A DNA stretch of 64,000 nt, taken from assembly GCA_965195285.1 (NCBI GenBank), contig CBDAFS010000031.1, positions 83,912 to 147,911 of the forward strand, read 5' to 3'. This DNA is from an uncultured Aminicenantes bacterium (GTDB taxonomy: Bacteria; Acidobacteriota; Aminicenantia; UBA2199). Position numbers and translations under genes: made by a program. Positions 3,797-61,700 of the stretch are shown here, piece by piece. The notes below the pieces were generated by a model. It was not told the DNA's origin, ran no database searches, and saw nothing but the letters and a program-made list of their open reading frames with translations. Within the stretch, counting starts at the first letter, position 1; the number at the start of each line of letters is the position of its first letter.

Positions 3797-6328
3797 ATGC
3801 TCAGGGAATATTCAGTTGAAGTCTGTAATCAATTGATGGAGAGGTTTCGACATCTCCGCTTGGTCCGTCCCATGCGGATATCCCGTTACGATGCGGGTAC
3901 AGAAGTGGATTTTGATATTGTTGGTGTGGAGAAGCGGAATAAAGGTCGGGTTCGCTTTTTAGTGGAATCATTTGTAGGCGGGGGATTTGCCGGCCAGGTA
4001 TACCGGGTCCGGGTAATTGGTCTGGATACCCCTGAGGGTCCCATCGGTTCCCTGAAGCTGAAGGGAAGATATGCGTTGAAAATCCTCATCCCTGCCTCCG
4101 GTTTTGCCCGGTTTTTCCGCAATTTTTTGTACTGGATCGGGTTTCAAGGTTTTTTTCAGCATCAGGTCAATCCCGAGGCTGTCCGGGCCGGTGCCCTCTG
4201 GCAGAAATTTTTTCGAAGGGGGGCCAAACTGCGCCTGGGTGATGAAAGTATGATCAATGATGTTCAGGCCACCCTGGTGGACATAAATCTGGGCAGTTGC
4301 GGGGAGATCAGTAATTGGGTTGATGGCCGGACCTGGAAGCTGGAGGTTGATGAATGTTTGGATGTATTGAAAAGGTTTTATCGCCGCCTCCCCGTGGACC
4401 GGGAAAAACTGGGATCGCCGGAGTACCGTGCCAAAAAAAAATTTATGACTGATTTTGTCCGGTTGCTTCATGATATGGGAGGGTATGAATTTGCCCGGCA
4501 ATATGAATGGTGGACCGGTAAGAGTCAGCCCAATTGTTTGAAGCGCAATACCACTCCCTATGATCCTTCAACCGGTCTGGTCGCGGTTGATTTCAGAGCT
4601 GGTTTGGTGCTCTTGCCTTTTTTTCCCATGAGCCCGGTCGATATCAAATTGATTTTACAAGGACTGTGGAGGAGAAGTCTGGTTCAGTTTGACCGGGGGG
4701 ATATCAGTAAATTGGAAGGCTTCATCAAAAGCCATCAGGATTCGTTTGCTGATTGTCAGTCCATGCTGTGTGAACTGAAACGTTCAGAAGCAATTTACCG
4801 GAACTCTGTTCCCGATATCACCCACCATCGTTTTAGGTTGCTATACAGCCGCAAGCTGTGGTCAACGATTTTTTCCAGTGCCATTACCGGCTGGCGTATC
4901 CGGAATTTGATTGATGGGGAATATGAACCGAAGCTCCGCGACAGCAGATACAGAACCATTGGGTTTTTCATGCTGGGATTGATTCCCTTTCTGGGAGGTC
5001 TCATCAGAAAATGGATGGGAAATGGCGATTGGAAACAGCACTCTAAAAAACTGATTTCAAGCTGGAATTATTTCAAAAAGGCCCTCCGGGGGAAATGTAT
5101 CGAGAAAACCATCAACTGGCATCGGAAAGGCCGAATAAATGAATTCCGGACCATGCGGATTTCGGAATCACTGGGGAGATTCAGTTTTCATCTGGTTTTG
5201 TCGTTGTTGCCTGTCGGATTACATCGGTTTCTGTCGGACAGAGGTTTTGCACGGGAACGTCTGGCTTATTTTTTTATCAGACCGGTTAAACTTTATTTCA
5301 ATGGAAAGGTTCGGGAACAATGGCTGAAAACCATGATCATTGAGGGGAAAAAAAAGCAGATACTCAGTGAGAATGATGTCCGGGTTATCCATTCCCAGCT
5401 CAAGGAACCCTACATTCAAAAATATTTGAAAAGCCTGGCTGTCCATGTTTTTACCTTGCCCGTTACCCAGATTGTTTCGGTTCTGGTCAGCTGGATATAT
5501 GTTAAAACCCATCCCGGCCTATCCGGAGCAGAAGCCATGGCCGCGGTGGCCACAATTCTGGTTCTGTTCCAGATCACCCCCATTTCACCCGGATCCCTGG
5601 TTAGGGGACTCTATGTGTTGTTTCTGGTCATAAAGGAACGAAATTTCAAAGACTATAACATTGCCATTTTCTTAAGTTTTTTTAAATATATCGGTTATCT
5701 GGCTTTTCCGATTCAGATGACCTACTACTATCCTGAATTGGCCAGGTTTATGGCTGGCCATTGGGCAACCGAAGCGGTCCATCATATTCCGGTTTTTGGT
5801 GAAAGAGGAGCTCTGCTGGAACACTGGGTTTTTAATTTATTCTACAACTGGCCCCTGACTATCCGCCGTCGAATGAGGAAAATAGCCGAGATCAGGCAGA
5901 AACAAAAATCCAGATACTGGCATACCGGTTTGATAGCCATAATTGGGGCGGGCATTTTCGGATTGGCTGATCATTTTTACCTGGTGCTGGCCGGGACCAT
6001 GCCCGGATTTAAAGATCTCTGGTGGTTCATGTTTATTTTACCTTTTATTTCCGGGATGATCCTGACCAGGGGCAGTGGTGGTGCCAAGCTGTCAAAAAGG
6101 GTTGTGTCCGCGGCGATATGCGGAATTTTTTTGGGTTTGTTTTACACTCTGATTTCTGTTTTTTTTGGCCAGGCTATCGGAATTTTCCCGGGTGAATGGA
6201 TTACGGCCGGAACCTGGAGGATATTCATTTTTTCAATTATGGCTGTTCTCGGAGTCCTGTATTTTGAGTTGAGACTGCCGGATCCGGAATTGAAATCAAT
6301 ATCCGAAAGAATATCAGTTCAGTCTTGA
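3797..6328 (+). CDS. protein-kinase-like N-terminal domain fused to ~9-TM membrane domain (unknown function)
   Basis: Gly-rich loop VGGGFAGQVYRV, putative VAIK-lysine equivalent YALKIL, DFG-like AVDFRAG. Residues ~340-843 contain at least 9 hydrophobic helices. No signal peptide. Confidence 0.55.
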   Translation: MLREYSVEVCNQLMERFRHLRLVRPMRISRYDAGTEVDFDIVGVEKRNKGRVRFLVESFVGGGFAGQVYRVRVIGLDTPEGPIGSLKLKGRYALKILIPASGFARFFRNFLYWIGFQGFFQHQVNPEAVRAGALWQKFFRRGAKLRLGDESMINDVQATLVDINLGSCGEISNWVDGRTWKLEVDECLDVLKRFYRRLPVDREKLGSPEYRAKKKFMTDFVRLLHDMGGYEFARQYEWWTGKSQPNCLKRNTTPYDPSTGLVAVDFRAGLVLLPFFPMSPVDIKLILQGLWRRSLVQFDRGDISKLEGFIKSHQDSFADCQSMLCELKRSEAIYRNSVPDITHHRFRLLYSRKLWSTIFSSAITGWRIRNLIDGEYEPKLRDSRYRTIGFFMLGLIPFLGGLIRKWMGNGDWKQHSKKLISSWNYFKKALRGKCIEKTINWHRKGRINEFRTMRISESLGRFSFHLVLSLLPVGLHRFLSDRGFARERLAYFFIRPVKLYFNGKVREQWLKTMIIEGKKKQILSENDVRVIHSQLKEPYIQKYLKSLAVHVFTLPVTQIVSVLVSWIYVKTHPGLSGAEAMAAVATILVLFQITPISPGSLVRGLYVLFLVIKERNFKDYNIAIFLSFFKYIGYLAFPIQMTYYYPELARFMAGHWATEAVHHIPVFGERGALLEHWVFNLFYNWPLTIRRRMRKIAEIRQKQKSRYWHTGLIAIIGAGIFGLADHFYLVLAGTMPGFKDLWWFMFILPFISGMILTRGSGGAKLSKRVVSAAICGIFLGLFYTLISVFFGQAIGIFPGEWITAGTWRIFIFSIMAVLGVLYFELRLPDPELKSISERISVQS

Positions 6329-10768: not shown

Positions 10769-11875
10769 ATGAAAGATTACTACCGGATCCTGGGTATCAA
10801 CCAGAAGGCACCCCTTTCCGAGATAAAGAAATCCTATAGAAAACTGGCCCGTAAATATCATCCTGATCTGAATCCGGGAGATGAAAATGCCGAAAAGAAT
10901 TTTAAAGAAATCACCGAGGCTTATGAAGTATTGAAGGACCCCAAAAAGCGGAAACAATACGATATCTTCGGTTCAGTAAAGGGAGATTTCAGAAATGACC
11001 GGGGGTTTTCGAATTTTGAAGGTTTTGATTTCACTTCACCGGGGGGCGCTTCTTTTGGAGATATATTTGAAACCATTTTTGGCGGGGCTGGAGGTTTCCA
11101 AGCTCAGCAAAAGGCCAGAAAAAACCGGCCACAGAGAGGCGAAGACCTTAATTATTCGATGAATTTAAGTTTTTTAGATGCGGCCAGGGGTATTGAGACC
11201 CCCATTCAGATAGTCAGAAAAGAGACCTGTGCCGCCTGCAAAGGCAAAGGAATTCAATCGGATTCGTCTAAAAAAACTTGTTCGGTATGCAAGGGAAGTG
11301 GTCGAATCCAGAAGCAGACCGGTTTTATGAAGTTTGCCTCGCTCTGTACCCATTGTGGGGGGAGCGGGATTTTACCAGGTGATACCTGTACTTCCTGTCG
11401 GGGTGAAGGCAGGATTGAAAAAGTCGCCCGGATCAAGGTGAAAATTCCTCCCGGAGTTGATAATCACTCAAGGGTGAGAATCAACGGAAAGGGCAATACC
11501 GGAAAATTCGGAGGTCCGGGTGGTGATTTGATCATTACCATTCAGGTGACACCGCATCCGTTTTTCAAACGGGATGGCCGTCATTTGGAAATTGAATTAC
11601 CTGTAACCTATGCGGAAGCTGCATTGGGAGCGAAAATCGAAGTCCCCACCCTGGACGGTTATTCGGTATTGAAAGTCCCACCCTCCATTCAATCGGGTGT
11701 TAAATTGAGATTAAAAGCCAAGGGTATCCTGAATCCAAAAACCAAAAGCATGGGAGATATGATTGTCAGGATTAAAATTATTCCACCCTCTATTAAAGAT
11801 TTGGAGGTCAGGGATTTGCTCAAGAAGATCGAAAAAATTGCGCCTTATAACCCGAGAGAGGGGCTGGGTAAATGA
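10769..11875 (+). CDS. dnaJ: molecular chaperone DnaJ (type I, with zinc finger)
   Basis: J-domain with HPD (YHPDLNPGD), a G/F-rich linker, and four CxxCxGxG repeats (CAACKGKG, CSVCKGSG, CTHCGGSG, CTSCRGEG). Confidence 0.9.
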   Translation: MKDYYRILGINQKAPLSEIKKSYRKLARKYHPDLNPGDENAEKNFKEITEAYEVLKDPKKRKQYDIFGSVKGDFRNDRGFSNFEGFDFTSPGGASFGDIFETIFGGAGGFQAQQKARKNRPQRGEDLNYSMNLSFLDAARGIETPIQIVRKETCAACKGKGIQSDSSKKTCSVCKGSGRIQKQTGFMKFASLCTHCGGSGILPGDTCTSCRGEGRIEKVARIKVKIPPGVDNHSRVRINGKGNTGKFGGPGGDLIITIQVTPHPFFKRDGRHLEIELPVTYAEAALGAKIEVPTLDGYSVLKVPPSIQSGVKLRLKAKGILNPKTKSMGDMIVRIKIIPPSIKDLEVRDLLKKIEKIAPYNPREGLGK

Positions 11876-12258
11876 AGGAAAAAACCTATTTGATATCGGC
11901 AGTGGCTTCTAAATATAATATCCATCCCCAAACCCTGCGTCTGTATGAGCGGGAGGGATTGTTGATTCCCAGCCGGACCAAAGGAAATACCCGGGTATAC
12001 AAAGAGGAGGATTTAAAAAAACTGGAATTTATATTGAATCTGTCCAGGGATATGGGTGTGAATCTGGCCGGAATCGAAATCATTCTCAATATGAAGGAAA
12101 AAATGGAGTCCATGCAAGAGGAGTTTTCAAAGTTCCTCGAGGAACTCAAGAGGGAATTCGAAGATAAAGAAGCCCTGTTTGAAGAAAAGAAAAATTCCAT
12201 CGTAAAGTTTTCACCCTCAAAGGTTACGATTTTCAGAAATGACAAAAAACAATCCTAG
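11872..12258 (+). CDS. hspR: MerR-family heat-shock repressor HspR
   Basis: 128 aa. N-terminal MerR HTH (YLISAVASKYNIHPQTLRLYEREGLL) and C-terminal coiled coil. ATGA overlap with dnaJ, the classic dnaJ-hspR arrangement. Confidence 0.7.
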   Translation: MKEKTYLISAVASKYNIHPQTLRLYEREGLLIPSRTKGNTRVYKEEDLKKLEFILNLSRDMGVNLAGIEIILNMKEKMESMQEEFSKFLEELKREFEDKEALFEEKKNSIVKFSPSKVTIFRNDKKQS

Positions 12259-13087
12259 GGAATCCCTGAATTCCCTGAACCTATATTTCCAAAAGATCAA
12301 GGGTATATCGATTTTAAATCCGGTTGAGGAAAAGGAATTGATTAAAAAAGCCAAGCAGGGGGATGAGGAGGCTTTTCAAAAAATCATCATTGCCAATCAA
12401 AAATTGGTGGTGAAGGAAGCTTTAAAATATTACTTCAAAGAGGATAATCTGCTGGACCTGATCAATGAGGGCAATAAAGGATTAATCGAGGCCTTGAAGC
12501 GGTTTGATGTTACCAGGGATAATCGTTTTTATACCTATGCCCTGTGGTGGGTCAGGAGTGAGATTAGACGATATCTGTCCAAGAATCAGAATATTATTTC
12601 TTTCCCGGATATTTTTTATAATGATTATCTCAATTTTAAAAAAGCTTATTTCAAATTGAGCAAAATTTTAAACCGGAAGCCCAGCGAGAGTGAATTGGCA
12701 GAACATCTGGATATCCCTGAAAAAAAAGTGAAGGTCATGCTTTCGGTCCCGAATGAAATCGTTTCTCTTGATGTAGGGATCGCCGATGGCCGGTTTCCCA
12801 ACCTGGCATCCTTTCTCCCGGATGATTCGGCTGATGATCCCCAGAAAATCATGCTGGGAATTTCAATGAAGAATGTCATCCGCGATGATGTTGAGGAATT
12901 AACCGAAAAGGAAGCCCGGGTAATCAAGATGAGATTTGGTTTTAACACGGAAGAACCCATGAAATTGAGGGAAATTGCCAAAATCATGAAAATGAGCCCG
13001 GAGGGAGTGCGAAGAATTGAAATGAAGGCCCTGTCCAAATTGAAAAGAAAACTGATCAAGAAAGGAATTTATGGAGTTTTGAATTGA
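12239..13087 (+). CDS. RNA polymerase sigma factor, sigma-70 family group 3 (regions 2-4; FliA/SigB/RpoH-like size, no RpoH box)
   Basis: Region 2 DLINEGNKGLIEALKRFD and YTYALWWVRSEIRRYL; region 4.2 HTH LREIAKIMKMSPEGVRRIEMKALSKLK. 282 aa. Confidence 0.8.
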   Translation: MTKNNPRESLNSLNLYFQKIKGISILNPVEEKELIKKAKQGDEEAFQKIIIANQKLVVKEALKYYFKEDNLLDLINEGNKGLIEALKRFDVTRDNRFYTYALWWVRSEIRRYLSKNQNIISFPDIFYNDYLNFKKAYFKLSKILNRKPSESELAEHLDIPEKKVKVMLSVPNEIVSLDVGIADGRFPNLASFLPDDSADDPQKIMLGISMKNVIRDDVEELTEKEARVIKMRFGFNTEEPMKLREIAKIMKMSPEGVRRIEMKALSKLKRKLIKKGIYGVLN

Positions 13088-13788
13088 GCCAGAAATTGTG
13101 TACAAAATGTAATGGAACCGGTTGGATCATAAAGAACAGGAAGGGCCAGGAATTTGCCATCCGGTGTGAATGCCAGGTCGAGGATTTGGTGCTGAATAAG
13201 TGCCAGTCGGCCAATATTCCCCAGAGATTTCTGGGAGCGGAATTGAAGGGTTATCAACTGGATCCTCAAAAACCTTCTCAGAAACGGGCCAAAAATACCG
13301 TTGGAAAATTTATTCAGGATTATCCGGCTGTGGAAAAGGGTTTGTTGTTGCAGGGTTCCATTGGCCTGGGCAAAACCAGGCTTCTCTGTTCTATAGGCTT
13401 TGAGCTGATAAAAAAAATGGATGTTGATGTGTACTATATTGACTGGAATGACCTGGTCAGGGAGATGAAAACCGGGGAAGATCATGCCAGCAGGGATTTT
13501 CAGGCTATTAATCAATTAATGAACCGTTTGATTGCGGTTGAATTGCTTTTATTCGATGAGCTGGGGGCTTCCAAAGTCAGCCCCTGGGTAAATGACAATA
13601 TTTACTATGTGTTCAACAAGCGTTACAACCTGAAAAAAACGACGGTGTGTGCAACCAATTTTTATGATGATCCGTCCGATGGAAAAGAATCACTGACCCA
13701 GCGAATCGGTGATCGAATCAGAAGCCGGTTGTATGAAATGGCCCGGGTTATTGAAATCAATGGAATTGATTACAGACTAAATTACTAA
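13084..13788 (+). CDS. DnaC/IstB-family AAA+ ATPase with N-terminal zinc ribbon
   Basis: N-terminal CTKCNGTG...CEC; Walker A GSIGLGKTRL; Walker B LLLFDELG. C-terminal VFNKRYNLKKTTVCATNF...RIRSRLYEM follows the DnaC/IstB pattern. ATGA overlap with the sigma gene. Confidence 0.6.
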   Translation: MSQKLCTKCNGTGWIIKNRKGQEFAIRCECQVEDLVLNKCQSANIPQRFLGAELKGYQLDPQKPSQKRAKNTVGKFIQDYPAVEKGLLLQGSIGLGKTRLLCSIGFELIKKMDVDVYYIDWNDLVREMKTGEDHASRDFQAINQLMNRLIAVELLLFDELGASKVSPWVNDNIYYVFNKRYNLKKTTVCATNFYDDPSDGKESLTQRIGDRIRSRLYEMARVIEINGIDYRLNY

Positions 13789-13800
13789 GAGGAGATTAAT

Positions 13801-14790
13801 ATGGATCCGGATATCACCTTCATCAATGAAAAAGTGAAAGAGGAAAGTGAAATTGTTGAAAGGATATTGTCAGAAATGGGAAAGACAATTGTTGGCCAGA
13901 GAATCTTGCTGGAAAGGATGATGATTGCCCTGGTCACTTCCGGACACATTCTTCTGGAAGGTGTTCCGGGCCTGGCCAAAACCCTGTCCATTAAAACCCT
14001 TTCCCAGGTACTGGATTTGAATTTCAGCCGGATTCAGTTTACTCCAGATTTATTGCCTGCCGATTTGACCGGAACCCTGGTTTTTAACCCCAAGACATCT
14101 GATTTCTATACCCGAAAGGGGCCGTTATTCACCAATCTCCTCCTGGCTGATGAAATCAACCGAGCCCCGGCAAAGGTGCAGAGTGCGCTGCTTGAGGCCA
14201 TGCAAGAGTTGCAGGTGACCATCGGAGAGAAGAGTCATGAAATTGAGAAACCCTTTCTGGTGATGGCTACCCAGAACCCGATCGAACAAGAGGGGACCTA
14301 TCCGTTGCCGGAAGCTCAGATAGACCGTTTTTTATTGAAGATAAAGGTGACATATCCGTCCAAAGAAGAGGAAAAGGATATCGTCACGAAAATGGCCGGA
14401 TCAGAACCCCAGCCGGTCCAGACCATTTGTTCCAAGGATGAAGTCTTCAGAATGAATCAATCCTATAAAATGGTTTATATGGATGAGCGCATCAAGGATT
14501 ACATCATTAATCTGGTTTTTGCTACCCGGTTTCCGGAGGAGGCCGGGCTGGAAAAATTGAAAAACCTGATTCAATTCGGGGCTTCGCCCAGGGCATCCAT
14601 TTATTTAACTGAAACATCCAGGGCGCTGGCATTTATCAAGCGGCGGGGATACGTGACCCCGGAAGATGTCAAAACCATTGGAATGGATGTGTTGAGGCAT
14701 CGCATTATTCTTTCTTATGAAGCTGAGGCCGAAGAAATGACCACCGATGACATTATAACCGAAATTTTCAATAATATTGTTGTGCCCTGA
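13801..14790 (+). CDS. MoxR-family AAA+ ATPase
   Basis: AAA_3-type Walker A LLEGVPGLAKT, Walker B LLLADEINRAP, sensor region FLVMATQNPIEQEGTYPLPEAQIDRF. Confidence 0.85.
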   Translation: MDPDITFINEKVKEESEIVERILSEMGKTIVGQRILLERMMIALVTSGHILLEGVPGLAKTLSIKTLSQVLDLNFSRIQFTPDLLPADLTGTLVFNPKTSDFYTRKGPLFTNLLLADEINRAPAKVQSALLEAMQELQVTIGEKSHEIEKPFLVMATQNPIEQEGTYPLPEAQIDRFLLKIKVTYPSKEEEKDIVTKMAGSEPQPVQTICSKDEVFRMNQSYKMVYMDERIKDYIINLVFATRFPEEAGLEKLKNLIQFGASPRASIYLTETSRALAFIKRRGYVTPEDVKTIGMDVLRHRIILSYEAEAEEMTTDDIITEIFNNIVVP

Positions 14791-14806
14791 ACCAAGCCGG
14801 ATACCA

Positions 14807-15238
14807 ATGGGGAAAAAAAAGAAACGAATACTTCAGAAGATCAATCCGGAAAAGTCCAACAAGATGATTTATGCAGTGGGTATCGGACTGGTGATCATTT
14901 TTACGGTTTTCTTCATTTTAATTAGCAGAGGAACCGATCCGGAAAATAAAAAGGAATTGCTTTCTGGGGTTTTGAGGTACTTAACCAAAACCCAGGGTAT
15001 AATCGATTTGGTGATATTACCTGAAAAGAACAATGTCCAAATCCGATATGACGGTCTGGACCGTAAAGATTTTTTTAAAATCACCACCTATGCCGGTATC
15101 AAGCTTTCTTTGGAATTGAAGGGTGAAAAAATAAAGGTGGAACTCTTTCGAGACAATGAAAAACGGCCGGTCTATACGATTTTTTTAAAGAACGGAACCA
15201 TTTTGAAAGAGGAGAGATCCATTCCGGCTGGGCAGTGA
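14807..15238 (+). CDS. single-pass membrane protein, unknown function
   Basis: Likely start MGKKKKR at 14807. TM helice IYAVGIGLVIIFTVFFILI followed by a beta-rich extracytoplasmic domain. Overlaps the MoxR stop. Confidence 0.45.
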   Translation: MGKKKKRILQKINPEKSNKMIYAVGIGLVIIFTVFFILISRGTDPENKKELLSGVLRYLTKTQGIIDLVILPEKNNVQIRYDGLDRKDFFKITTYAGIKLSLELKGEKIKVELFRDNEKRPVYTIFLKNGTILKEERSIPAGQ

Positions 15239-15277
15239 TCCCTGACCGGCTGGGGGTTCGGAAGTCCCGAATCACCA

Positions 15278-15306
15278 CTTGAGTGTAGCGAATCGAAACA
15301 CTCAAG
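15278..15306. promoter_or_regulatory. HAIR-like inverted repeat CTTGAGTGT-N11-ACACTCAAG (HspR operator half-sites with extended spacer)
   Basis: The arms contain exactly CTTGAGT / ACTCAAG, the half-sites of the HspR-associated inverted repeat. They are separated by 15 nt instead of the canonical 7, giving a 9-bp perfect stem. There is no downstream T-tract, so a terminator role is less likely. Confidence 0.4.
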
Positions 15307-15532: not shown

Positions 15533-15548
15533 TGGAAAATAAATTGCT
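15533..15548 (+). promoter_or_regulatory. weak sigma54-type -24/-12 element TGGaaaataaaTTGCt
   Basis: GG and TTGC have the correct 8-nt separation; about 90 nt upstream of the SD/ATG at 15689. A sigma70 alternative, TTGGAA-N18-TATTAT, overlaps it. Confidence 0.3.
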
Positions 15549-15688
15549 TGCTATTTATTATACGATTGCCTGAAATATTGTAAATCTGCTTGGTAGGAAT
15601 TGGATATAAATTAATTTGATAACCGGAGGGTAAAATTATGCAGAAAGCAATGTTAAATCCAATAAAAATATCAAAAAGGAGAAATCAG

Positions 15689-16342
15689 ATGAAAAAAAAG
15701 GTTTTAAAACCGATTTTGGTTGTTTTGCTGGCGGTCTTTATTTTATCCGCCTGGTCAGGTCAGGCGTATGCCAGACTGGTTTATAATCAGGTTGATGGCT
15801 GCTTCGATGATACGGGCCGGCAGGCCATTCGAACTCACATTATTGAAGCGGCAGGCTATTTTCTGAAAGCCTATTCGGAGATTCTGGCCTTATCGGATCG
15901 TATCGAAATGTCGGATTTGAGCGGTATTGATTACTTTGAATCCCGGTTATTGGTTGACCAGGCGATTTTCAACCTGGAGAATGCCAGGGAGAAATATCTG
16001 ATTCTGACTCAAATTGCAGCCAACACTCCTTATAACCCGGGAGTGATCAACAATTTGCTCATTTTCAATTATCGGGAATTCAGAGATAATCAACAGTTAA
16101 AGGGGTTACAGTTTGATCAGGTCAAAAGTTTCCTGATGAATGGCGATGTCCGGGGGATATTTGATAAAGCGCTGGCCGATGTGGAAAATATCCTGGAAAG
16201 GCTGGACCGGGTAAAAATTGCCATTTATTCCCTTTCATTGCCTGAGATGTCAGATATTTGGGAATTGAACCGGCTGTGCTCCGAATTCATGATGTTCGGG
16301 CAATATTCAGCCAGAATCTTTTATCGGGTCACTGGAAAATAA
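15689..16342 (+). CDS. secreted alpha-helical protein, unknown function
   Basis: AAGGAG sits 8 nt upstream of the ATG at 15689. Signal peptide MKKKVLKPILVVLLAVFILSAWSGQAYA. No recognisable domain. Confidence 0.55.
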   Translation: MKKKVLKPILVVLLAVFILSAWSGQAYARLVYNQVDGCFDDTGRQAIRTHIIEAAGYFLKAYSEILALSDRIEMSDLSGIDYFESRLLVDQAIFNLENAREKYLILTQIAANTPYNPGVINNLLIFNYREFRDNQQLKGLQFDQVKSFLMNGDVRGIFDKALADVENILERLDRVKIAIYSLSLPEMSDIWELNRLCSEFMMFGQYSARIFYRVTGK

Positions 16343-16367: not shown

Positions 16368-17705
16368 GTGAAAACTTTATACACCGTTTTTTTATTGGAA
16401 CTCAGGAGGGTATTCAGTAAGCGAAATATTGTCATTTTAATCTTATTCCTGATGCTATGCCTGTATTTTGTTCAGGTAGGTATTCAGCACTACCGGACCA
16501 TCATTGATAACAAGGAGAAATTCCTGGAGACCGAACGCTTAAAAACCGATCTTTATATCACTTATTCCATGTATGCCGCTTATGGTTTTAGGCTTCAGTT
16601 TGTCCCCTCTCCTCTGAGTGTTTTGTTTGTTAATTCAACGGTAATATCAGAACTCTCATCCAATGTGGATGTGGCCAGTCTGTTGAATATATACAAATCT
16701 TACAAGGGCAGGGTCCTGTTTGCTGAAAAGTCCGGGGGATTTAAAGATTTTTCCGGAATCATTCTCCTGTTTGGCACCATGATAGTGCTCTATCTGGGGT
16801 TTGAAACCTTCCTGAATAAAGACTATATTCGTTTTATATCCAGTTTTATTCAACCCAAAAAGTTGTTTTATTCCATTGTCGGGTCCCGATTGTTGTTGCT
16901 TGTACTGTACTTTTTTTTCATGACCATCAGCTCGATTATTTTACTCGGGATAAACGGGATTCAGCTTTTGAAAAATGAATTCAGTCATCTCTATTATTAT
17001 TTGCTGGTCATGGCCATAATGCTGGTTTTCTTTTTCATATTGGGTTTGGTTTCCGGAACCATAAAATCTCGATTTGCCGGATTTATCATGGTGATTTCGG
17101 TATGGTTTATTTTTGTTTTTTTGATCCCCGGGGTCATTCAGTCCCTTATTGCCACCAGTGCAGAAAATATCACCTCCGGTTATGATCTGGAATTGAAAAA
17201 ACTTCAGGCCCATATGGGTTTTGAAAAAAGAGCCATGGAGCAGGAAGGGGTTTTGCAGGATTCCCGAAAAAACACCCAGTCTGAAAGGGATATAATGGAG
17301 AGCTATTGGAAAAATGAATTGAAAAAAATTCAAAGCCTGGAAAAAAACATGGAAAACGATATGAGAAAGAATATCAGGAATTTTCAAAGAATGTCCCTGA
17401 TTGTTCCCTCCAGTTTTTATATATCGGTAAGCAATGAAATCAGCAGTCGGGGCTACAAGAATTTTGTTAATTTTTTCAGTTATTTGCAGAAGCTGAAGGA
17501 GGGATTTATTCGGTTTTACATTGATAAGCGCTTCTATTCCAATTTTTCAAAGGTTGAGTTGTATATCAAAGGCGAAGAAAATATTTATTATTCCAGAAAT
17601 CTCCTGCCGGATTTTTTTATATGGGGCGTGTGTTTAACCCTGCTTTACATCATGTCATTATTTATTTTTGCTTATTATCGGTTTAAAGGGTCTCTGGTGA
17701 TATGA
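16368..17705 (+). CDS. ABC-2-type permease-like polytopic membrane protein with long C-terminal cytoplasmic extension
   Basis: Six predicted TMs with the ABC-2 topology (TM1, large loop, five clustered TMs), an extension of about 190 aa rich in K/E, and a final TM. GTG start. Confidence 0.55.
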   Translation: MKTLYTVFLLELRRVFSKRNIVILILFLMLCLYFVQVGIQHYRTIIDNKEKFLETERLKTDLYITYSMYAAYGFRLQFVPSPLSVLFVNSTVISELSSNVDVASLLNIYKSYKGRVLFAEKSGGFKDFSGIILLFGTMIVLYLGFETFLNKDYIRFISSFIQPKKLFYSIVGSRLLLLVLYFFFMTISSIILLGINGIQLLKNEFSHLYYYLLVMAIMLVFFFILGLVSGTIKSRFAGFIMVISVWFIFVFLIPGVIQSLIATSAENITSGYDLELKKLQAHMGFEKRAMEQEGVLQDSRKNTQSERDIMESYWKNELKKIQSLEKNMENDMRKNIRNFQRMSLIVPSSFYISVSNEISSRGYKNFVNFFSYLQKLKEGFIRFYIDKRFYSNFSKVELYIKGEENIYYSRNLLPDFFIWGVCLTLLYIMSLFIFAYYRFKGSLVI

Positions 17706-18394
17706 TCAGGATTGACAATCTGTTTTTAAAAAAGAAAATTCCCGAAATCAGTGATCTCAGTCTACAGGTGAAAGCCGGGGAAACGTTTGTATTGTTGTCC
17801 TCCGGTGAAAGGGTCAGCAACCATCTGATTAATATTTTTACCGGAAGGGAACGAGATTTTTCCGGGACTGTGAAGGTTGATCAACAAAATATATTAAATG
17901 ATCTGAAAGAACTCAGAAAAAACCTGGTTTATATAGGTAAGGAAAGCGACTGGCCTCCGGTGATCAGAATCAAAGATATCATGGGCTTTCTGAGGAGGAT
18001 TACCCGCATTTCAGAGGAAGAGTACGAGGAATTCAAAATAAAAATGAATCTTGATCAATTGAACCGCTACCGGATCAATGACCTGGAAGAGGTGGAAAAA
18101 CGTCGATTGTTGTTTTCAATTGTTCAGCTGGGCAAAAGCAACAATTTTGTAATCCATGACCTGGCCAAGGGTATGCCCATTGATTTTATCCTGGAATTCA
18201 AGGAAAATATTCGCCAGTTGAAACAAAACGGCTGTTCAATACTCTATATCAGCGATGATGTTTTTTTTGCTCCTGAGATCGGGGATCGCATTGGATTTTT
18301 GAAAAAAGGCAAGCTGTTACTGGAGCTAAAAGGAAGAAAAGTAAAACGGATGGACCTGAAGGAACTGTATTTCAGGTTTCTGGCCGAAGAATAA
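17702..18394 (+). CDS. ABC-transporter nucleotide-binding-domain-like protein with degenerate catalytic motifs
   Basis: NBD-like order: beta strand IDNL...LSLQVKAGETFVLL, then LSSGERVSN where Walker A should be (no GxxGxGKS/T); signature region EEVEKRRLLFSIVQL in place of LSGGQKQR; Walker B VIHDLAKG (Asp kept, catalytic Glu lost); H-loop His absent. ATGA overlap with the upstream gene. Confidence 0.55.
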   Translation: MIRIDNLFLKKKIPEISDLSLQVKAGETFVLLSSGERVSNHLINIFTGRERDFSGTVKVDQQNILNDLKELRKNLVYIGKESDWPPVIRIKDIMGFLRRITRISEEEYEEFKIKMNLDQLNRYRINDLEEVEKRRLLFSIVQLGKSNNFVIHDLAKGMPIDFILEFKENIRQLKQNGCSILYISDDVFFAPEIGDRIGFLKKGKLLLELKGRKVKRMDLKELYFRFLAEE

Positions 18395-31737: not shown

Positions 31738-32694
31738 ATGCCTGAGGAAAAGACACCGGTTTCACTGCGGTTAAGGAATCTCTCCAAATCTTACAGGGAT
31801 ATAAAAGCAGTGAGAAATTTGACTCTGGACATATTTAAGGGGGAAGTGTTCGGTTTTTTGGGACCCAATGGGGCCGGTAAGACCACAACCATCCATATGA
31901 TCTGTGGCTTGCTGAAAAGTGATTCCGGTGAAGTGTTCATCCAGGGCAAATCACTGAATCAATTTTACCGTGAATGCAAATCTTCACTGGGATTGTGCCC
32001 CCAGAACCTGATTGTCTGGGAAACACTGACATGCCTGGAACAATTAGAGTTCATAGGTAGGCAATACAATGTGAGTCAGAAGAATGTCAGGAAAAAAGTC
32101 TGTGAACTCCTGGAGTTGTTGGGGCTTTATGATAAACGACACAAGCTGGCCAAAACCCTGTCCGGTGGCATGAAGAGACGGTTGAATCTGGCCCTGGGAT
32201 TGGTTCATGACCCGGATATCTTAATACTGGATGAACCCCAGGCCGGGCTTGATCCGCAGAGCCGAATACTGGTAAGGGAGTACATCCGTTCAATGGCCAG
32301 GCACAAAACCATTATTTTGACTACCCATGAAATGGTTGAGGCTGATCAGCTTTCCGATCGGATTGCCATTATTGATCACGGACAGCTGCTGGTTCTGGAC
32401 ACACCCGATGAATTGAAAAACCGCATGGGCCAGGGTAATATTCTGGAGATTAAACTTGCCCCTGGCCAGCATCAAAAAATTTCACCGTTTATTGAGCATC
32501 TGCCCCGGAGACTCCGGCATCTCTCTCTGCAAAATGATAGCCTGCATATGGTGGATACCGATATCCTGGGTATCTTGTCGGTTCTGATTGATAAACTCAG
32601 GAAGGGCAATATCAAAACCGAAGATGTTAAGATCCGGAAAAAGACACTGGAGGATGTTTTCATATCCCTGACCGGCAGGAGGCTTAGAGAATGA
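31738..32694 (+). CDS. ABC transporter ATP-binding protein
   Basis: Canonical Walker A GPNGAGKTT, Q-loop, signature LSGGMKRR, Walker B ILILDEPQAGLD, H-loop TTHEM. Confidence 0.9.
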   Translation: MPEEKTPVSLRLRNLSKSYRDIKAVRNLTLDIFKGEVFGFLGPNGAGKTTTIHMICGLLKSDSGEVFIQGKSLNQFYRECKSSLGLCPQNLIVWETLTCLEQLEFIGRQYNVSQKNVRKKVCELLELLGLYDKRHKLAKTLSGGMKRRLNLALGLVHDPDILILDEPQAGLDPQSRILVREYIRSMARHKTIILTTHEMVEADQLSDRIAIIDHGQLLVLDTPDELKNRMGQGNILEIKLAPGQHQKISPFIEHLPRRLRHLSLQNDSLHMVDTDILGILSVLIDKLRKGNIKTEDVKIRKKTLEDVFISLTGRRLRE

Positions 32695-33901: not shown

Positions 33902-36900
33902 TTAGATAGCGGTTGAATCCTGGTTGGACGGTTTCTCATCCAGGACATCCCGGATTTTTTTTGATAATTCTTTTATATTAAAGGGTTTTTGAATGAATCC
34001 GTTACAGCCACGCTGGAGGAGTTCGCTGGCCTGGCCATCAACACTATATCCACTGGAAAGAAGAATTTTTACATTGGGATTGATTCCCTTAAGCCTTTCG
34101 AAAGTAACGCCCCCACTCATTTTTGGCATGACCATGTCCAAAACAACCAGATCAATTTCCTTTTTTCTCCCCCAGTAAATTTCAATGGCTTCCTGGCCAC
34201 TTCGAGCCACAAAAACATTGTAGCCAAGACTTTCCATTATTTGTCCAACAACCTCAATCACGATCTCTTCATCATCCACCAGCAGTATGGTTTCGGTTCC
34301 GTAAACCAGATCTTCCTTGACCACCTTTTCTACCATCGGTTGTTTACTGGAAGCCGGAAGAAAAATATCGAAAGTAGAACCGATATCCAGTTCGCTATGT
34401 ACGGTGATAAATCCGCCATGATTTTTTAAAATACCATAAACTGTTGCCAGTCCCAGTCCAGTACCGCGCCCTCTCTCTTTGGTGGTAAAAAACGGATCAA
34501 AAATCCTTTGTTTGGTCTCGTCATCCATACCTTTTCCGGTATCGGTTACTGATATTTTGACAAAATTTCCCGGTTCTATAAGATGGGGTTTTGTCTGGTT
34601 GTGATCCAGATAAACATTTCTGGTTTCAATCAGGATATCTCCGCTCTCCGGCATTGCCTGCCAGGCGTTTACAAACAGGTTCATGAAGACCTGATCCATC
34701 TGACCCGGATCCACTTCAACCGTAGAGATGTTATCTTGATATTGAGCACGAATACCAATTTCCTTTTTGGTTCGACCAAACATCAATACGTTATCTTTGA
34801 CCAGGTTATTTATGTTGATTGGTTTGACCTCGAATTTTCCTTTTCTGGCAAAACCAAGTAATTGTTTGGTCAGATCCGCAGCATTCTTTACATAATGTTC
34901 CATTTCCTTTAAATGATCTTTTGGGCTGGATTTTTTATCAAATCCAATTTGCATGAGCGAAACCCTTCCCTGGATTCCAGTCAGAAGGTTGTTGAAATCA
35001 TGGGCGATACCACCGGCCAGAGTACCCAACGCTTCCAGTTTCTGTGCCTGTTGGATCATTTTTTCCATGTTTTTGCGTTCGGTAATATCTCTCAATATGC
35101 CCTGAACAGCAACTCCGCCTTTATATAAAATAGTGGTGACCGACGCTTCAACTTCCAATTCTTTTTGATCTGATGTGAGAGCGGTGTAGTTGAATTGTGA
35201 TTCCGACTTTTTTTCATCAATGATCTGCTGGAATTTCCGTTCAACAGAATTTTTGCTCTTGAGTGAAATCAACTCCAGATAATCGAACTCGGGCCGACAT
35301 ACATATTCCTGACTGACACTAAAGAGTTGCCTGAATTTTTCGTTAATCAATTCGAATTTTCGGTTATGCAGAATAAAAATCGGATCATTGGAAGATTCTA
35401 CCAGATGCCGGTATTTCTTTTCGCTGGCCCTTATCTCTTCCTCAGCGCGTAGTTTTTCTTCAATCTCCTGATTTAGCTTCAGATTTTTCCTCTTCAGCTC
35501 GTCAACTTTTTTTCTTATGGAATAAGTCCGGTAAAAATACAGTAAACCAATAAACAGCGAAGCAATTAACAGACCCAATAATCGGATCCAGGTGTTGGAA
35601 AAAAACGGAGGTGTGATGGAAATTCTTACAGCCGTACCTTTTTCATTCCATATTCCTTCGTTATTTGATGCTCGCACCCTGAAGGTATATTCTCCCGGTG
35701 GAATTCCTGAATACGTTGCATGTCTCAGATGTTTGATGTAATTCCAGTTTTCCTCCAGCCCCTCCATCTTGATGGCATACTCATTTTTTTCTGGAAAAAT
35801 GTAGTTTAATGCTGAAAAATTTAAGGTAAAAATATTTTCTTTATAGGAGAGATTAACCTCTGAATATTTCGAAGAAGACTTCCGGGATGAATTTGATTGG
35901 GTCCTGGATTGCCAGATCTGTATCGGTTTGTTGAATATTTTAAAATCCGTGATTATAACCGGGGGTATATACCGGTTGATTCGTACCTCATAGGGATGAA
36001 AACAGTTCAATCCTCGAATTCCCCCAAAAAAAAGCCGACCTGACCTGGTTTTATAATGAGCACCGGTGTTGAAGGTGTTGGATTGCAAACCATCTTGAAG
36101 TGTAAAGTTTCTTATGGTTTTGTTATCGATATCAAAATGGGATAATCCTTTCTTGGTACTCAGCCAGAGATTGTTTTTTGCTCCGGGAAGAATTCCGGTT
36201 ATGATATTGTCAGGGAGTCCGTTATTTTTTGTGTAATGTATAAAGGTTTTATTCTTTTTTACAAATTGGTTCAACCCCTTGCTGGTACCGATCCAAAGAC
36301 GCCCTTGTTGATCTTCCATTATTGACAATACCTCATTTATACTGAGGCTGTTTATGTCACCCGGGCTATATAAGTAGCGAATTGGAGGAAGAGTCGGATT
36401 GAAACATATTAATCCTCCACGGCTGGTTCCGGCCCAAATATTTTGGTTTTGATCCTGGTAAAGGACATTGATTTGGTCATCATTGAGATCGTTCAATTGC
36501 GGAAATTGAGAAGTTATTGCGTTAATGGTCGAGTTTTCGATATCCATTTTAAACAGACCTTGATCTGTTCCCACCCACAGGTTGTTTTCATTTTCAGCCA
36601 ATAGGGCAGTTACCGATGTGCCTTTGAAATTAAATATGCTATCGAAGTCATATTCTTTAATTATGTGTCGGGTATTTCGACTCAATTTATTGAGTTCCTG
36701 GTTTTCATTTTTTAGGCCCAGCCAAATAATATCGTTTTTTGTGTGGGGATTAATATAGATTACCTGTATGTTTCCTGTTGGACCGGATCTGGGAACTATG
36801 TTGACAAATTGATCGGTTTGGGGATCGAATCGATTAAGCCCCTTATACCCCCCGATCCAAATTTTTCCTTCAGGATCTTCGCAAATTGAGTGAACACTCG

Positions 36901-38038
36901 ATATTTTCAGACTATTTGTACTTTCGGAAATATTCTGATACTTTCTGAATTTTTGCATGCATGGATTCCAGTAATTTAATCCACTGCTCCGGGTGCCAAT
37001 CCATATAGTAAAGCTGCGATCCCGGTACAGGTGGGTAATGGTATCATGACTTAAACTATCCGGGTTAATGGGATCGCGATATTGATGGAAAAACAGGTTG
37101 CTCTTTTTATAAAAAATATCAATTCCTTTTTGCTGAAATCCTATCCAAATTCGTCCCATATTGTCCTCACAGATATAATTGACAAAATTATCCGAAAGGC
37201 TGGTGGGATTTTTGGGGTTGTGGGTGAAATGAGAAAATGTTGATTCACCTGGCTTCAAACGATACAATCCTGAGCCCATTGTGCCGATCCATAGATTGTT
37301 TTCACTATCGACAAAGAGATCATTTGGATTTTTTATTTGATTGTTATATGCTTCTGAATCGATGATTTGAATGGATTGAGATTTAAGATCACCTTTCTTT
37401 AAATGGAATAGCTCCTTACTCGAAGCCATCCAAAAATGACCTTTGCCATCCTCTACGATATCTTTTATGACTTGGCTGTTAATTTTTTGAATCTTACTCT
37501 GTTCAGTATCAAGAAAGTATATTCCTTGTCGGGTTCCCACCCAAAAATGATTGTCGTTATCTTCAAAAAGACAGGTGATATGTTCCTGAAATTTCCCCTT
37601 TCTTTTGCGATTGTTATAAGGGATGAAAAGTTCAATTCTTTCATGTTCTTTGCTAAAGCGGTACAATCCTTTTTCGGTTCCCACCCAGATAGTACCGTTA
37701 TGACTTTCCAGTATGGTGGTGATATTATAATTGGCCCATTTGATAGGGGTATTCGTATCTCTCGGAAATATATTAAAATCATATCCATCATAACGATATA
37801 GCCTTTCGGTGGTAGCAAACCACATGAATCCGCTGGCATCCTGTAAAATTCCCTGTATTTTGCTTAAAGGCAGATCATCTGGAAGAGAAAGGTATTTGAA
37901 TTGATGCTGGATTTGACCCTGATCAGAAGATCTTTCCTGGTTGTTGGATTCGAGGTTTATTGCAAATAAAAGAATAATAACCAGGGTACTCAGTATTGCT
38001 CTCAAAAAGAAGAAAAATAAATTGTATACTTTTTTCAT
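33902..38038 (-). CDS. hybrid sensor histidine kinase with periplasmic double beta-propeller (Reg_prop repeats + Y_Y_Y), PAS, HisKA, HATPase_c, REC
   Basis: Signal/TM; about 14 W.GT..GL.+F propeller repeats; [22 protein letters not shown]; coiled coil; PAS; H-box [16 protein letters not shown]; G-boxes DTGKGMD and GTGLGL; C-terminal REC ([10 protein letters not shown]). No DNA-binding domain. Confidence 0.85.
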
Positions 38039-58797: not shown

Positions 58798-61700
58798 ATG
58801 AATGACTCAATAAAAATTTTTGTCATCATTTTGTTGATTTTATTTCTCAACTTATCTGCTCAACAACTACACATAAAAAATTATACAACCGATAATGGTC
58901 TCCCATCATCACAAGTATGGTGCAGTTTACAGGACAGTAAAGGTTATATCTGGTTTGGAACATCTAATGGCCTGGTAAAATATAACGGGAAGAGATTTTT
59001 CACATACAAGGTCTCGGACGGACTTGTCAGTAGTGTTGTGCTGGCATTATTGGAAGAAAATGGTAATATCTGGATTGCAACTGATAACGGGATAAGCTGT
59101 TATAATGGTAAAAGTTTTACCAATCATATATCAAATAATGATTTAAATTTTGGAATAGTTTGGTGTATCTCAAAATTTCAGGGTTGTTTGTGGTTCGGAA
59201 CAAAAAGACAGGGGTTGTTTAAATTTGACCCTGCCGGGGCTGAAGATAATGTTTTTTCAAATTATTCTGCAAAAGAAGGCTTATACCTTTCCAGTATTTT
59301 TTCCTTGGCTGCGGATGATAACCATTTGTGGATTGCCAATGCCCATACCGGATTATTCATGTATGATGGGAAAAATTTTTTAGATTATACAAAAAGTTTT
59401 AACCTGGAAAATAAAACATTAACAAACTTATTAATAGTTGACTCTACATTACTGGTAGGAACGGCAAAGAATGGCTTATTCGAATTGGATCTTAATAGAT
59501 TGCCTGATAGAATGGCTAAATCAAAAAAAGTTGCCAACTACTTTCCTACTGATTACATTTATTACTTGGCAGCAAAAAAGGAAAACCTGTTTTTGGGAAC
59601 TCGTGGTAGCGGTCTTATTCATTATAAAGACAGACCAATCAGGTATACAACGGCAAACGGTTTAATAAATAATTTCATTTATTCAATATTAATAGACAAG
59701 GAAAATTCCGTATGGATTACCACCAACAAAGGAATCAGCAAAATTATTTCTCATAAATTTATAAAATATGTAGATAATATGTCGGTATTATCTGCTTGTG
59801 AATTTAAGAGTGCAATCTGGCTGGGAACGTTTGAAAACGGTTTGATAAGAATAGAAGGTGATAAGATTACTACTTATAACCAAAATGGTTTCTTTAACCC
59901 CAGCCATATATGGGTGCTGGGTGTGTTCGATAACAAGCTGTGGATAGGGGGTATGAGTGGATTATATAGTTATGATGGTAATAAGTTTAAAAAATACAGA
60001 AGAAAAAATGGAATTGCTGAAGAAGGCGTATTAAGCCTCTTACCTACCGTGAAATCTTTGTGGGTTGGAACTGTAAATAAAGTATACAAATTCGAACCTC
60101 ATAAATTAAAAGATAAATTTTTAACTTATGGATCAGAAGACGGTCTAACCAACACCTATTTTCAGACTATCTGTCAGGATGGGAATAAAATATGGGTTGG
60201 TTCCCCTGGCGGTGCCTTCTGTCTTGACCTAAAAGAGGGGGGGGGATTTAAAAAGTTCTCAAAAAAAGATGGGCTGTCTTCTAATTGTATAAATGTGATT
60301 TTTAAGGACAACAAGGGAATATTATGGTTCGGAACTTCAAATGGGCTGAATAAATATGAACCAGACAAAGAAAAGAAATTTAGCGTTTACACTATTGAAA
60401 ATGGATTAAGTGACAATCATATAGTATCTATTATTCAAAAAGGTAAATATTTATGGCTCGGGACCAGTAATGGATTAAATAAATTTGATGGCGAAAATGT
60501 CATAAAAATATTTACCCAGAAGAGTGGCTTAATTGGTAATGAGTCATCATCACCAAACGCAATGTTTCTTGACAGCAATAATCATATCTGGATCGGTTCT
60601 CCAAAAGGGGTAACAAAATATATTCCTGAGAATGATATTCCCAATAAAGTGCCTCCACCGGTATATATTGAGAATTTTTTTATGAATAATTCACTGGTTG
60701 GTGATGAACAAGATCTTGAGTTTGAATATAAAAAAAACACAGTAAAATTTTCTTATATAGGTCTTTCCTTTCAAAATGAAGACGACGTGCGGTACAAATA
60801 CAAATTAGAAGGATACGATAAAGAGTGGTCGGAAGTAACTGAAAAAGATGAAGTTAGATATACCAATTTAAATAACGGGACTTACACTTTCATGGTATTT
60901 GCTCGAAACGGGGATGGTTTTTGGTCAAAAACTCCGGCAGAAATATCTTTTAAAATACTTCCCCCTTTCTGGAAATCCTGGTGGTTTGTAATTATTGTGG
61001 CACTCATGCTGGTTGGGATAGTATATGTTGTTTTTATATTGAAGACCACTCAAATGAGGAATAGGGCAAAAAAGTTAGAGCAAAAAATTGATGAAAGAAC
61101 AAAAGTGCTAAAGGACTCAGAAGAAAAATACAGAACATTAATTGAACATTCAAACGATATGATATGGACCCTGGACGAAAAGGGAAATTTCAGCTACTTT
61201 AACAAAAAGTCAGAAGAGATAACAGGCCACCAAATTGAAGAAGGGATCGGAGGGTCATTTGCTCCCATAATTCTTGAAGAAGATTTAGAAAAGGTTCAGA
61301 AGGTTTTTATTGGAGCAATGCAGGGAAAACCTCAACATTATGAAGTAAGAATTTATGACAGTAAAAAAAGAATATTATTTTTATCTGTAAATACCGCGCC
61401 CATTTTTAAAAACGGAAAGGTTATTGGAACTATTAGTTTTGGAAGAGACATAACGAAACAAAAGAAAATGGAGGAAGAACTTCTGAAAGCAAGCAAACTC
61501 GAATCACTCGGGATCCTTGCCGGGGGTATAGCTCACGATTTCAATAACACCCTTACTGCAGTTATTGGTAATTTATCACTGGCAAAATTACAAGTAGATT
61601 CAAAAGACAAACTCAATAATACGTTGATGAAAATCGAAAAATCCTCACAGCAGGCAAGGGATTTAACTCAGCAATTACTAACTTTTGCCAGAGGTGGTAC

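Follow-up and report, generated by a model that had tools for sequence, protein, structure and literature searches.

Genes at the locus and predicted fold of the pseudo-NBD

The window analyzed here is a 64,000-nucleotide stretch of contig CBDAFS010000031.1 (positions 83,912 to 147,911 of the forward strand; assembly GCA_965195285.1) from an uncultured Aminicenantes bacterium. It encodes what appears, from the sequence, to be an ATP-binding cassette (ABC) transporter turned into an ATP-independent membrane complex. The element at its center is a 230-aa protein (17702..18394, + strand) that, according to the open reading frame (ORF) call, its predicted fold and motif alignments, has the fold of an ABC nucleotide-binding domain (NBD) without the catalytic motifs, and which we refer to as the pseudo-NBD. 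Its ORF starts with ATG and overlaps by 4 nt (ATGA) the stop codon of the upstream ORF, p445 (16368..17705, +), a permease of 445 aa with six transmembrane (TM) helices that was assigned by TM prediction, homologues and BLASTP to a diverged ABC-2 (PF12679)/DUF3526 type. The first gene of the operon, p234 (15638..16342, +), encodes a 234-aa helical protein predicted from TM and signal analysis and from comparison of loci to be secreted or signal-anchored. The three genes are called the triad below.

A preliminary description of this DNA, made from the letters alone, had recognized an NBD fold in which all catalytic motifs are degenerate, and had proposed alignment to the ABC_tran hidden Markov model (HMM) as a check. 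The Pfam ABC_tran model (PF00005) scored 21.2 bits (E 4.6e-4) and did not reach its gathering score of 25, and a precomputed PF00005 match was present in just 3 of the 120 homologues listed for the pseudo-NBD. The best NCBIfam match was galliderm_ABC, a lantibiotic-protection ABC ATPase subfamily, at a weak 36.6 bits over residues 15-225, and a phmmer search of the PDB returned full-length matches to solved NBDs, the best being 4u00_A (E 7e-6) and the others weaker. An AlphaFold2 model, built with 119 homologues in the alignment, had a predicted local distance difference test (pLDDT) score of 90.6 and a predicted TM-score (pTM) of 0.89. Foldseek comparison of this model with the PDB gave 1204 matches at E<=1e-3, and among the matches listed all 50 were ABC ATPase subunits or ABC-transporter-related proteins; the top match was LptB (4p33_A, E 1e-15, TM-score 0.82), and the others included ArtP and TM0544 (E about 1e-15, TM-scores of about 0.8) as well as MalK. 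In the model, the complete RecA-like core and helical subdomain of an ABC NBD are kept. The NBD homology, real though marginal by sequence, is thus a matter in which structure prediction settles the doubt, and the fold claimed at the outset was borne out by AlphaFold2/Foldseek together with the motif alignments.

Close relatives of the pseudo-NBD are found at the related loci L044 (98% identical), L011 (95% over residues 146-230) and L002 (81%). Homologues carry the public annotation ‘ABC-type multidrug / Na+ transport ATPase’, which is very probably wrong. The PADLOC defence models gave no match for the pseudo-NBD, the permease, p234, the neighboring kinase or the 84-aa ORF described below.

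Loss of the ATP-handling motifs

Motif positions were mapped through a HMMER alignment to 4u00 and a MAFFT alignment with intact Aminicenantes NBDs, and residue frequencies for the family were taken from 119 aligned pseudo-NBD homologues. The A-loop Tyr is replaced by I13 (aliphatic in the family), and the Walker A motif GxxGxGK(S/T)T by S33-S34-G35-E36-R37-V38-S39-N40-H41, the family having V, I, F, L or N at the Lys position; more generally, the P-loop glycines, Lys and Ser/Thr have become Ser, Asp/Glu, hydrophobic residues and Asn/Asp in the family. K80, at a position that varies among homologues, stands in place of the Q-loop Gln, and the LSGGQ signature, a site that is acidic in the family, is replaced by L128-E-E-V-E132, within INDLEEVEKRRL. 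In Walker B the Asp is kept as D153 (Asp in 99 of 119 homologues), and the catalytic Glu has become L154, within VIHDLAKG, a position occupied by F, L, Y or I in 119 of 119. The D-loop SALD reads G157-M158-P159-I160, with M158 invariant, and the H-loop His is D185 (D, N or S in the family). The degenerate strings LSSGERVSN, INDLEEVEKRRL and VIHDLAKG and the missing H-loop His were all found at the positions named in the preliminary description, so that the motif loss was confirmed by alignment.

A pattern search showed that GxxGxGK[ST] was absent from all 119 aligned homologues, and Walker A was likewise absent from 39 of 39 forms in which permease and pseudo-NBD are fused in one chain, their NBD being equally dead. 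‘Canonical’ SGGQ strings that the pattern search returned in three homologues lie at non-homologous positions outside the signature site and were discounted. As read from these alignments, the pseudo-NBD is devoid of every residue used for ATP binding or hydrolysis.

Conservation and selection

A search of 5.8 billion proteins yielded 133 pseudo-NBD homologues, nearly all of about 230 aa, at identities falling from 98% to 48%, and none of them has a Walker A motif or a signature at the homologous position. The possibility, raised in the preliminary description, that orthologues would carry intact motifs and mark this copy as a recent pseudogene, or that the fold assignment would fail, was not supported: the orthologues lack the motifs and the fold assignment holds. 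In comparison with the 98%-identical L044 copy, the ratio of nonsynonymous to synonymous divergence (dN/dS) of the pseudo-NBD gene was 0.067 at dS 0.137, the lowest of the five genes of the module compared; the values for the permease, the neighboring kinase and its regulator were 0.12, 0.15 and 0.12, respectively. The degeneracy is therefore conserved and under purifying selection, as the proposed alternative of a pseudo-ATPase structural subunit would have it.

The mean top-residue frequency was slightly higher at the substituted motif positions than over the whole pseudo-NBD (0.74 versus 0.69). M158 and D186 are invariant in the family, and S33, H41, R134, G157 and P159 are each conserved in more than 90% of members. 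The former G-K-S/T positions 37-40 had top-residue frequencies of 0.29-0.46, the lowest among the motif-equivalent positions checked. The conserved replacement residues fit new constraints acting at what was once the ATP/dimer interface.

An exhaustive HMM search with the pseudo-NBD profile against 1.84 billion representatives of 50%-identity clusters (cut-off E<=1e-10) retrieved 423 proteins. The best 56 were all without GxxxxGK[ST], and the first intact NBD came at rank 57 (E 3e-21); Walker A was missing in 102 of the best 150 matches, 93 of which were at least 200 aa long. Given the family-wide motif loss, the ranking in this search and the dN/dS value, the degeneracy is therefore old, widespread and selected.

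The permease partner, its fusions and the intact relatives

The GTG start of p445 is backed by N-terminal conservation among its homologues. Neither Pfam nor NCBIfam gave a significant match for the protein itself. Many of its homologues, by contrast, carry a precomputed PF12679 (ABC2_membrane_2) match, and P0133, 50% identical to p445, scored 30.2 bits on this model against a cutoff of 27.2. Residues 222-383 of p445 aligned by BLASTP (E 3e-8) to the DUF3526-bearing region of the PF12679+DUF3526 permease of locus L020, and this alignment, together with a helical bundle at the same place in the model of a fused form (below), indicates a helical DUF3526-type insertion between TM5 and TM6. Two large loops, residues 40-130 and 258-415, are predicted to lie outside (extracytoplasmic), and they hold 36 of the 51 permease positions that are at least 90% identical among 83 split and fused sequences.

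About 40 of 91 p445 homologues are single chains, 630-690 aa long, with a dead NBD C-terminal to the permease. These fusions are Rosetta-stone evidence that p445 and the pseudo-NBD form one machine, and p445, by this sequence evidence, is the physical partner of the pseudo-NBD; the pairing with the neighboring permease-like protein that had been proposed beforehand was upheld both by the 4-nt gene overlap and by the roughly 40 fusions. The AlphaFold2 model of one fused form, P0174, had a pLDDT of 91.1 and a pTM of 0.90. Its best whole-chain matches in the PDB were ABCA half-transporters (query TM-score, TMq, 0.40-0.46; about 550-620 alignment columns; identity 10-14%), and type IV exporters matched it through the NBD alone, with a root-mean-square deviation of about 30 Å, a pattern that fits an ABC-2/type V architecture. 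In the fused proteins P0217, P0219, P0245 and P0253 (730-758 aa) the helical TM5-TM6 insertion is about 50-90 residues longer, from which it follows that the length of the periplasmic stalk varies between subfamilies.

Intact counterparts exist in the same phylum. The intact Aminicenantes NBDs, of about 240 aa, have GANGAGKTT, (Y/F)SKGMRQK, LLDEPTxGLD and STHD, with an ABC_tran score of 94 bits, and their genes directly follow those of PF12679+DUF3526 permeases of about 470 aa (L012-L014, L018, L020, L022). A full-length alignment of the pseudo-NBD with an intact Aminicenantes NBD showed 20% identity (E 3e-12). The C-terminal ‘ADRIGFMKKGKLVM...EDLTELYIQYMEE’ of the intact NBD closely resembles ‘GDRIGF(L/M)KKGKLLLEL...LKELYF.FLAEE’ of the pseudo-NBD, the signature common to both being ‘DRIGFMKKGKL...ELY.QYM.E’. 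The two systems share the permease-then-NBD gene order and six TM helices with a helical TM5-TM6 insertion; they differ in that the pseudo-NBD lacks the motifs and reaches 21 rather than 94 bits on ABC_tran, and in that the permease of the window falls below every Pfam model. The pseudo-transporter is best read, on present sequence comparisons, as a derived branch of the PF12679+DUF3526 transporter type. At L012 (3267-12917) one intact NBD gene is flanked by six same-strand ORFs of 419-530 aa; three of the six L012 ORFs were scanned with Pfam, and all three had ABC2_membrane_2 and two of the three also DUF3526. Intact relatives, at L013 as well, can thus be multi-permease systems.

The conserved triad

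p234 has a single N-terminal hydrophobic segment followed by AYA|R, and translation may in fact begin at the internal Met18 (15689); searches of Pfam and NCBIfam found no family match for it. A p234 homologue of about 200-230 aa adjoins the permease/pseudo-NBD in every examined locus, be it split, fused or distant. In L046, a split lineage 32% identical, the triad (211 + 449 + 228 aa) occurs without the kinase or the sigma-54 site described in the next section. Since the triad is kept there without kinase and regulator, it is an autonomous functional unit, and kinase and regulator form a clade-specific control layer. Two split copies, L004 and L006, occur in one genome (the same metagenome-assembled genome, CAZCVI01), and split and fused forms (L036, L043) occur in one metagenome, JGI sample 3300038338; the system thus has paralogues in one population and, in at least one case, in the same genome.

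Candidate sigma-54 promoter and two-component system

The pseudo-NBD gene is convergent with a gene for a soluble histidine kinase (18396..19625, −), in which Pfam identified HisKA and HATPase_c domains, with 1 nt between the stop codons. One borderline hydrophobic stretch of the kinase, at residues ~107-133, was read as non-TM. Its N-terminal 180 aa matched no Pfam family and no PDB sequence, and residues 1-180 were thus taken to be an orphan sensor domain. Next to it lies a gene for an NtrC-type response regulator (19670..21016, −), with REC, sigma-54 activator AAA+ and Fis helix-turn-helix domains by Pfam. A candidate sigma-54 −24/−12 promoter, TGGAAAATAAATTGCT (15533..15548, +), was found by its match to the consensus about 90 nt in front of p234, and the NtrC-type regulator likely activates this promoter, as its domain composition and position suggest.

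Comparison with related loci showed that kinase and regulator adjoin the pseudo-NBD gene convergently in 11 of 13 distinct split-form loci, in which the other neighbors differ. A GG-N10-GC sigma-54 element was located just upstream of the p234 homologue in every split-form locus checked; a near-consensus TGGCA(C/T)-N5-TTGC stands at the same place in five independent loci (L001, L004, L005, L010/L035 and L037), with a weaker version in L006, and strict matches to TGGCA(C/T)-N5-TTGC number just 1-2 per 12-20 kb locus. The fused-form loci, in turn, have neither a sigma-54 site directly upstream of the p234 homologue nor a two-component system, and XRE-type regulators or a radical-SAM/SPASM gene are found nearby.

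The window has a second sigma-54-like −24/−12 site, TGGAAAACATATTGCT (21340-21355, +), which is near-identical to the 15533 site. About 90 nt downstream of it begins a conserved ORF of 84 aa (21432-21686, +), which has no family match and is divergent from the regulator gene. Counterparts of both site and ORF are present in L002 and L003, and L044 has the ORF. The unit formed by this ORF may be a second target of the NtrC-type regulator. An inverted-repeat search for enhancer-binding sites in the two promoter regions found nothing shared, the only hairpin being at 15278-15306, and generic sigma-70 and terminator scans of the window gave results at chance level.

Proposed role of the pseudo-NBD and alternatives

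We propose, with a probability of roughly 0.7, that the pseudo-NBD descends from an ATPase subunit and now serves as a structural subunit, independent of nucleotide, in an envelope complex derived from an ABC-2 (type V-like) transporter. In such a complex the pseudo-NBD would serve as a permanent cytoplasmic clamp or dimerization module that keeps the permease dimer locked in one state, without cycling. The surface that does the work would be formed by the periplasmic domain, which is highly conserved, and by the secreted p234; these would bind or organize some component of the envelope, and from the ABCA-like fold one might guess at a lipid-like ligand. Expression of the operon would be switched on by the neighboring two-component system via sigma-54.

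Several points weigh against this proposal. The Walker B Asp, D153, is retained in 83% of homologues, and D-E is kept in a few fused forms, and non-canonical nucleotide binding by the pseudo-NBD is, from its sequence, formally possible. The sigma-54 site of the window is weak (TGGAAA, not TGGCAC), with 2 mismatches, and matches of its kind occur across the window at a chance-level frequency; the site at 15533 also overlaps a sigma-70-like match. In the literature searched, no description was found of DUF3526 transporters, even of intact ones, and the clamp or dimerization role and the periplasmic function of the complex are what we infer from the observations above.

The proposal was weighed against readings in which the pseudo-NBD signals or senses. 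The triad could be the membrane sensor of the soluble kinase, a periplasmic event passing through the permease to the pseudo-NBD, which would dock the N-terminal domain of the kinase, with the phosphorylated regulator inducing the operon through sigma-54 as feedback. We regard this as rather unlikely. That the kinase has neither a clear TM segment nor a recognizable sensor domain, that its gene stays immediately beside that of the pseudo-NBD at 48-95% identity even as the flanks change, and that the periplasmic loops are the most conserved part of the permease would all agree with it, and kinase-controlling ABC complexes have precedent, BceAB-BceS (8g4c) being among the fold matches of the pseudo-NBD. 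Pst-PhoU-PhoR is another known ABC complex that controls a kinase. In its fullest form, doubtful to a similar degree, the idea would make a fossilized ABC transporter into an ATP-independent receptor in which the conserved periplasmic domain and p234 capture an envelope signal and the permease relays it; somewhat speculatively, the dead NBD, its ATP/dimer interface rebuilt as a protein-protein surface, would then control the kinase encoded tail-to-tail with it, in a ‘three-component’ sigma-54 system. However, the fused-form loci, L004/L006 and L046 of the distant split clade all have triads but no kinase, and both the adjacency and the sigma-54 promoter are explained equally well if the operon is simply the regulon of the two-component system. 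A regulatory role of the pseudo-NBD is possible because the two-component system adjoins it in this clade, with the qualification that the distant clade keeps the triad without the kinase. Nucleotide sensing in place of hydrolysis, the second role suggested in the preliminary description, did not fare as well: it is unlikely because the P-loop residues are replaced, the A-loop has no aromatic left and the sites that once held Gly and Lys are drifting, positions 37-40 being the most variable of the motif-equivalent ones checked. A broader version, in which a remodelled pocket (S33, D/E36, H41, E129-E132, D153, D185, D186) would sense a non-canonical nucleotide, a metal or another small ligand, has a very small probability in our estimate; the substituted positions are Asp/Glu/His-rich and slightly above average in conservation, and the Walker B Asp is mostly kept, which speaks for it. 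Against it, residues at the former G-K-S/T sites are free to vary, the A-loop no longer has its aromatic, and neither the fused nor the distant subfamilies conserve the acidic and His residues.

It is also improbable, in our judgement, that the partner of the dead NBD is an intact NBD or half-transporter from another locus, with ATP still being used at one site of the hetero-complex. A single degenerate site is frequent among ABC transporters (PMC7756269), the phylum has intact paralogous NBD/DUF3526 systems, some with many permease genes per NBD, and L006 adjoins a divergent intact ABC-2 transporter. Yet in none of the more than 15 loci examined does the conserved module include an intact NBD, and the sole intact ABC NBD elsewhere in the window (31738-32694) lies 13 kb off, beside its own ABC-2 permease. 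In addition, because Walker A and signature are both dead in the pseudo-NBD, neither composite site would be canonical, and the fused forms are self-contained half-transporters expected to homodimerize. Finally, a decaying pseudogene or a chance resemblance to ABC proteins, for which the below-threshold Pfam ABC_tran score would speak, was given practically no weight and is ruled out by the 133 constant-length homologues, the dN/dS of 0.067, the confident model (TM-score 0.82) and the permease fusions.

Comparison with known systems

ABC transporters are defined by ATP-driven NBD dimerization. To our knowledge, degenerate ABC sites, well studied as they are, have always been found beside one working site. 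The pseudo-NBD belongs instead to a broad, strongly conserved family without a working site, comprising at least 93 representatives of 50%-identity clusters (each at least 200 aa), both split and fused, and this family would show that the ABC-2 architecture can be retained for an ATP-free job. Asymmetric exporters (TM287/288, BmrCD, TAP, CFTR, MRP1, Rv1273c/72c) have one degenerate site, and their degenerate NBDs, which lack the catalytic Glu, the H-loop His or the signature, are still folded, conserved and functionally important; Walker A and ATP binding are preserved in these known degenerate NBDs, and a competent site is always present alongside them (PMC7756269, PMC12038006). The pseudo-NBD resembles them in having lost motifs while staying folded and conserved, and differs in that Walker A is gone and no competent partner site is encoded in the module. 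The asymmetric exporters are, moreover, of type IV, whereas the triad is ABC-2/type V-like. Keyword searches of the literature (pseudo-ATPase ABC, fully degenerate NBDs, Aminicenantes ABC/sigma-54) returned no description of a fully dead ABC-2 family, which is absence of evidence only.

What the triad shares with BceAB-BceS (8g4c, 8s5g) and PstSCAB-PhoU-PhoR is the genetic linkage of an ABC-type membrane complex to a two-component system under whose control it is, or for the triad probably is, expressed. The Bce system, which requires ATP hydrolysis, combines an FtsX-type permease of 10 TM helices with a kinase of the intramembrane-sensing kind and an OmpR-type regulator; the triad clade, in contrast, has a six-TM ABC-2-type permease, a soluble kinase, a sigma-54 NtrC-type regulator and an NBD predicted to be hydrolysis-incompetent, and signaling by it is a proposal. 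Both BceAB-BceS and Pst-PhoU-PhoR need ATP turnover, and their permease and kinase types are other than those found here. ABCA1/3/4/7 share with the fused forms the order of transmembrane domain and then NBD, the lack of domain swapping and a large extracytoplasmic domain, but they are eukaryotic ATP-driven lipid exporters with two unlike halves and a much larger extracytoplasmic domain, and the ABCA likeness of the model is at the fold level only. Structural studies would have in the triad a naturally ‘frozen’ ABC-2 complex. The triad also prompts one to ask what has taken the place of ATP where the NBDs meet, and it points to an envelope system widespread in Aminicenantes, an uncultured sediment lineage.

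Other features of the window and of related loci

Upstream of the operon, a unit at 10769-15306 encodes DnaJ, a MerR-family regulator and a sigma-70-family factor, followed by AAA+ genes (IstB/DnaA-like, 13084-13788; MoxR, 13801-14790) and a 153-aa single-TM protein. The hairpin at 15278-15306 is probably its terminator. This unit is syntenic only in L044, the closest relative, and was therefore placed outside the pseudo-ABC module.

At related loci, sigma-54 consensus sites also precede a megasynthase gene (polyketide synthase/nonribosomal peptide synthetase, PKS/NRPS), a radical-SAM gene immediately 5′ of the p234 homologue, and a string of 23S_rRNA_IVP, radical-SAM-SPASM and fused pseudo-transporter genes; in L037 an NRPS gene flanks the triad. 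The coordinates of these sigma-54 and natural-product observations are L035 8067; L004 3562 and 3900-5543; L042 5034-9193; and L037 1-5089. The triad may be linked to peptide natural products or to envelope stress, an association that is inconsistent across loci. Elsewhere in the window, two long ORFs (33902-38038, −, 1378 aa; 58798-62613, +, 1271 aa) were noted, and tblastn located histidine-kinase-like segments at 34394-35056 and 61420-62127.

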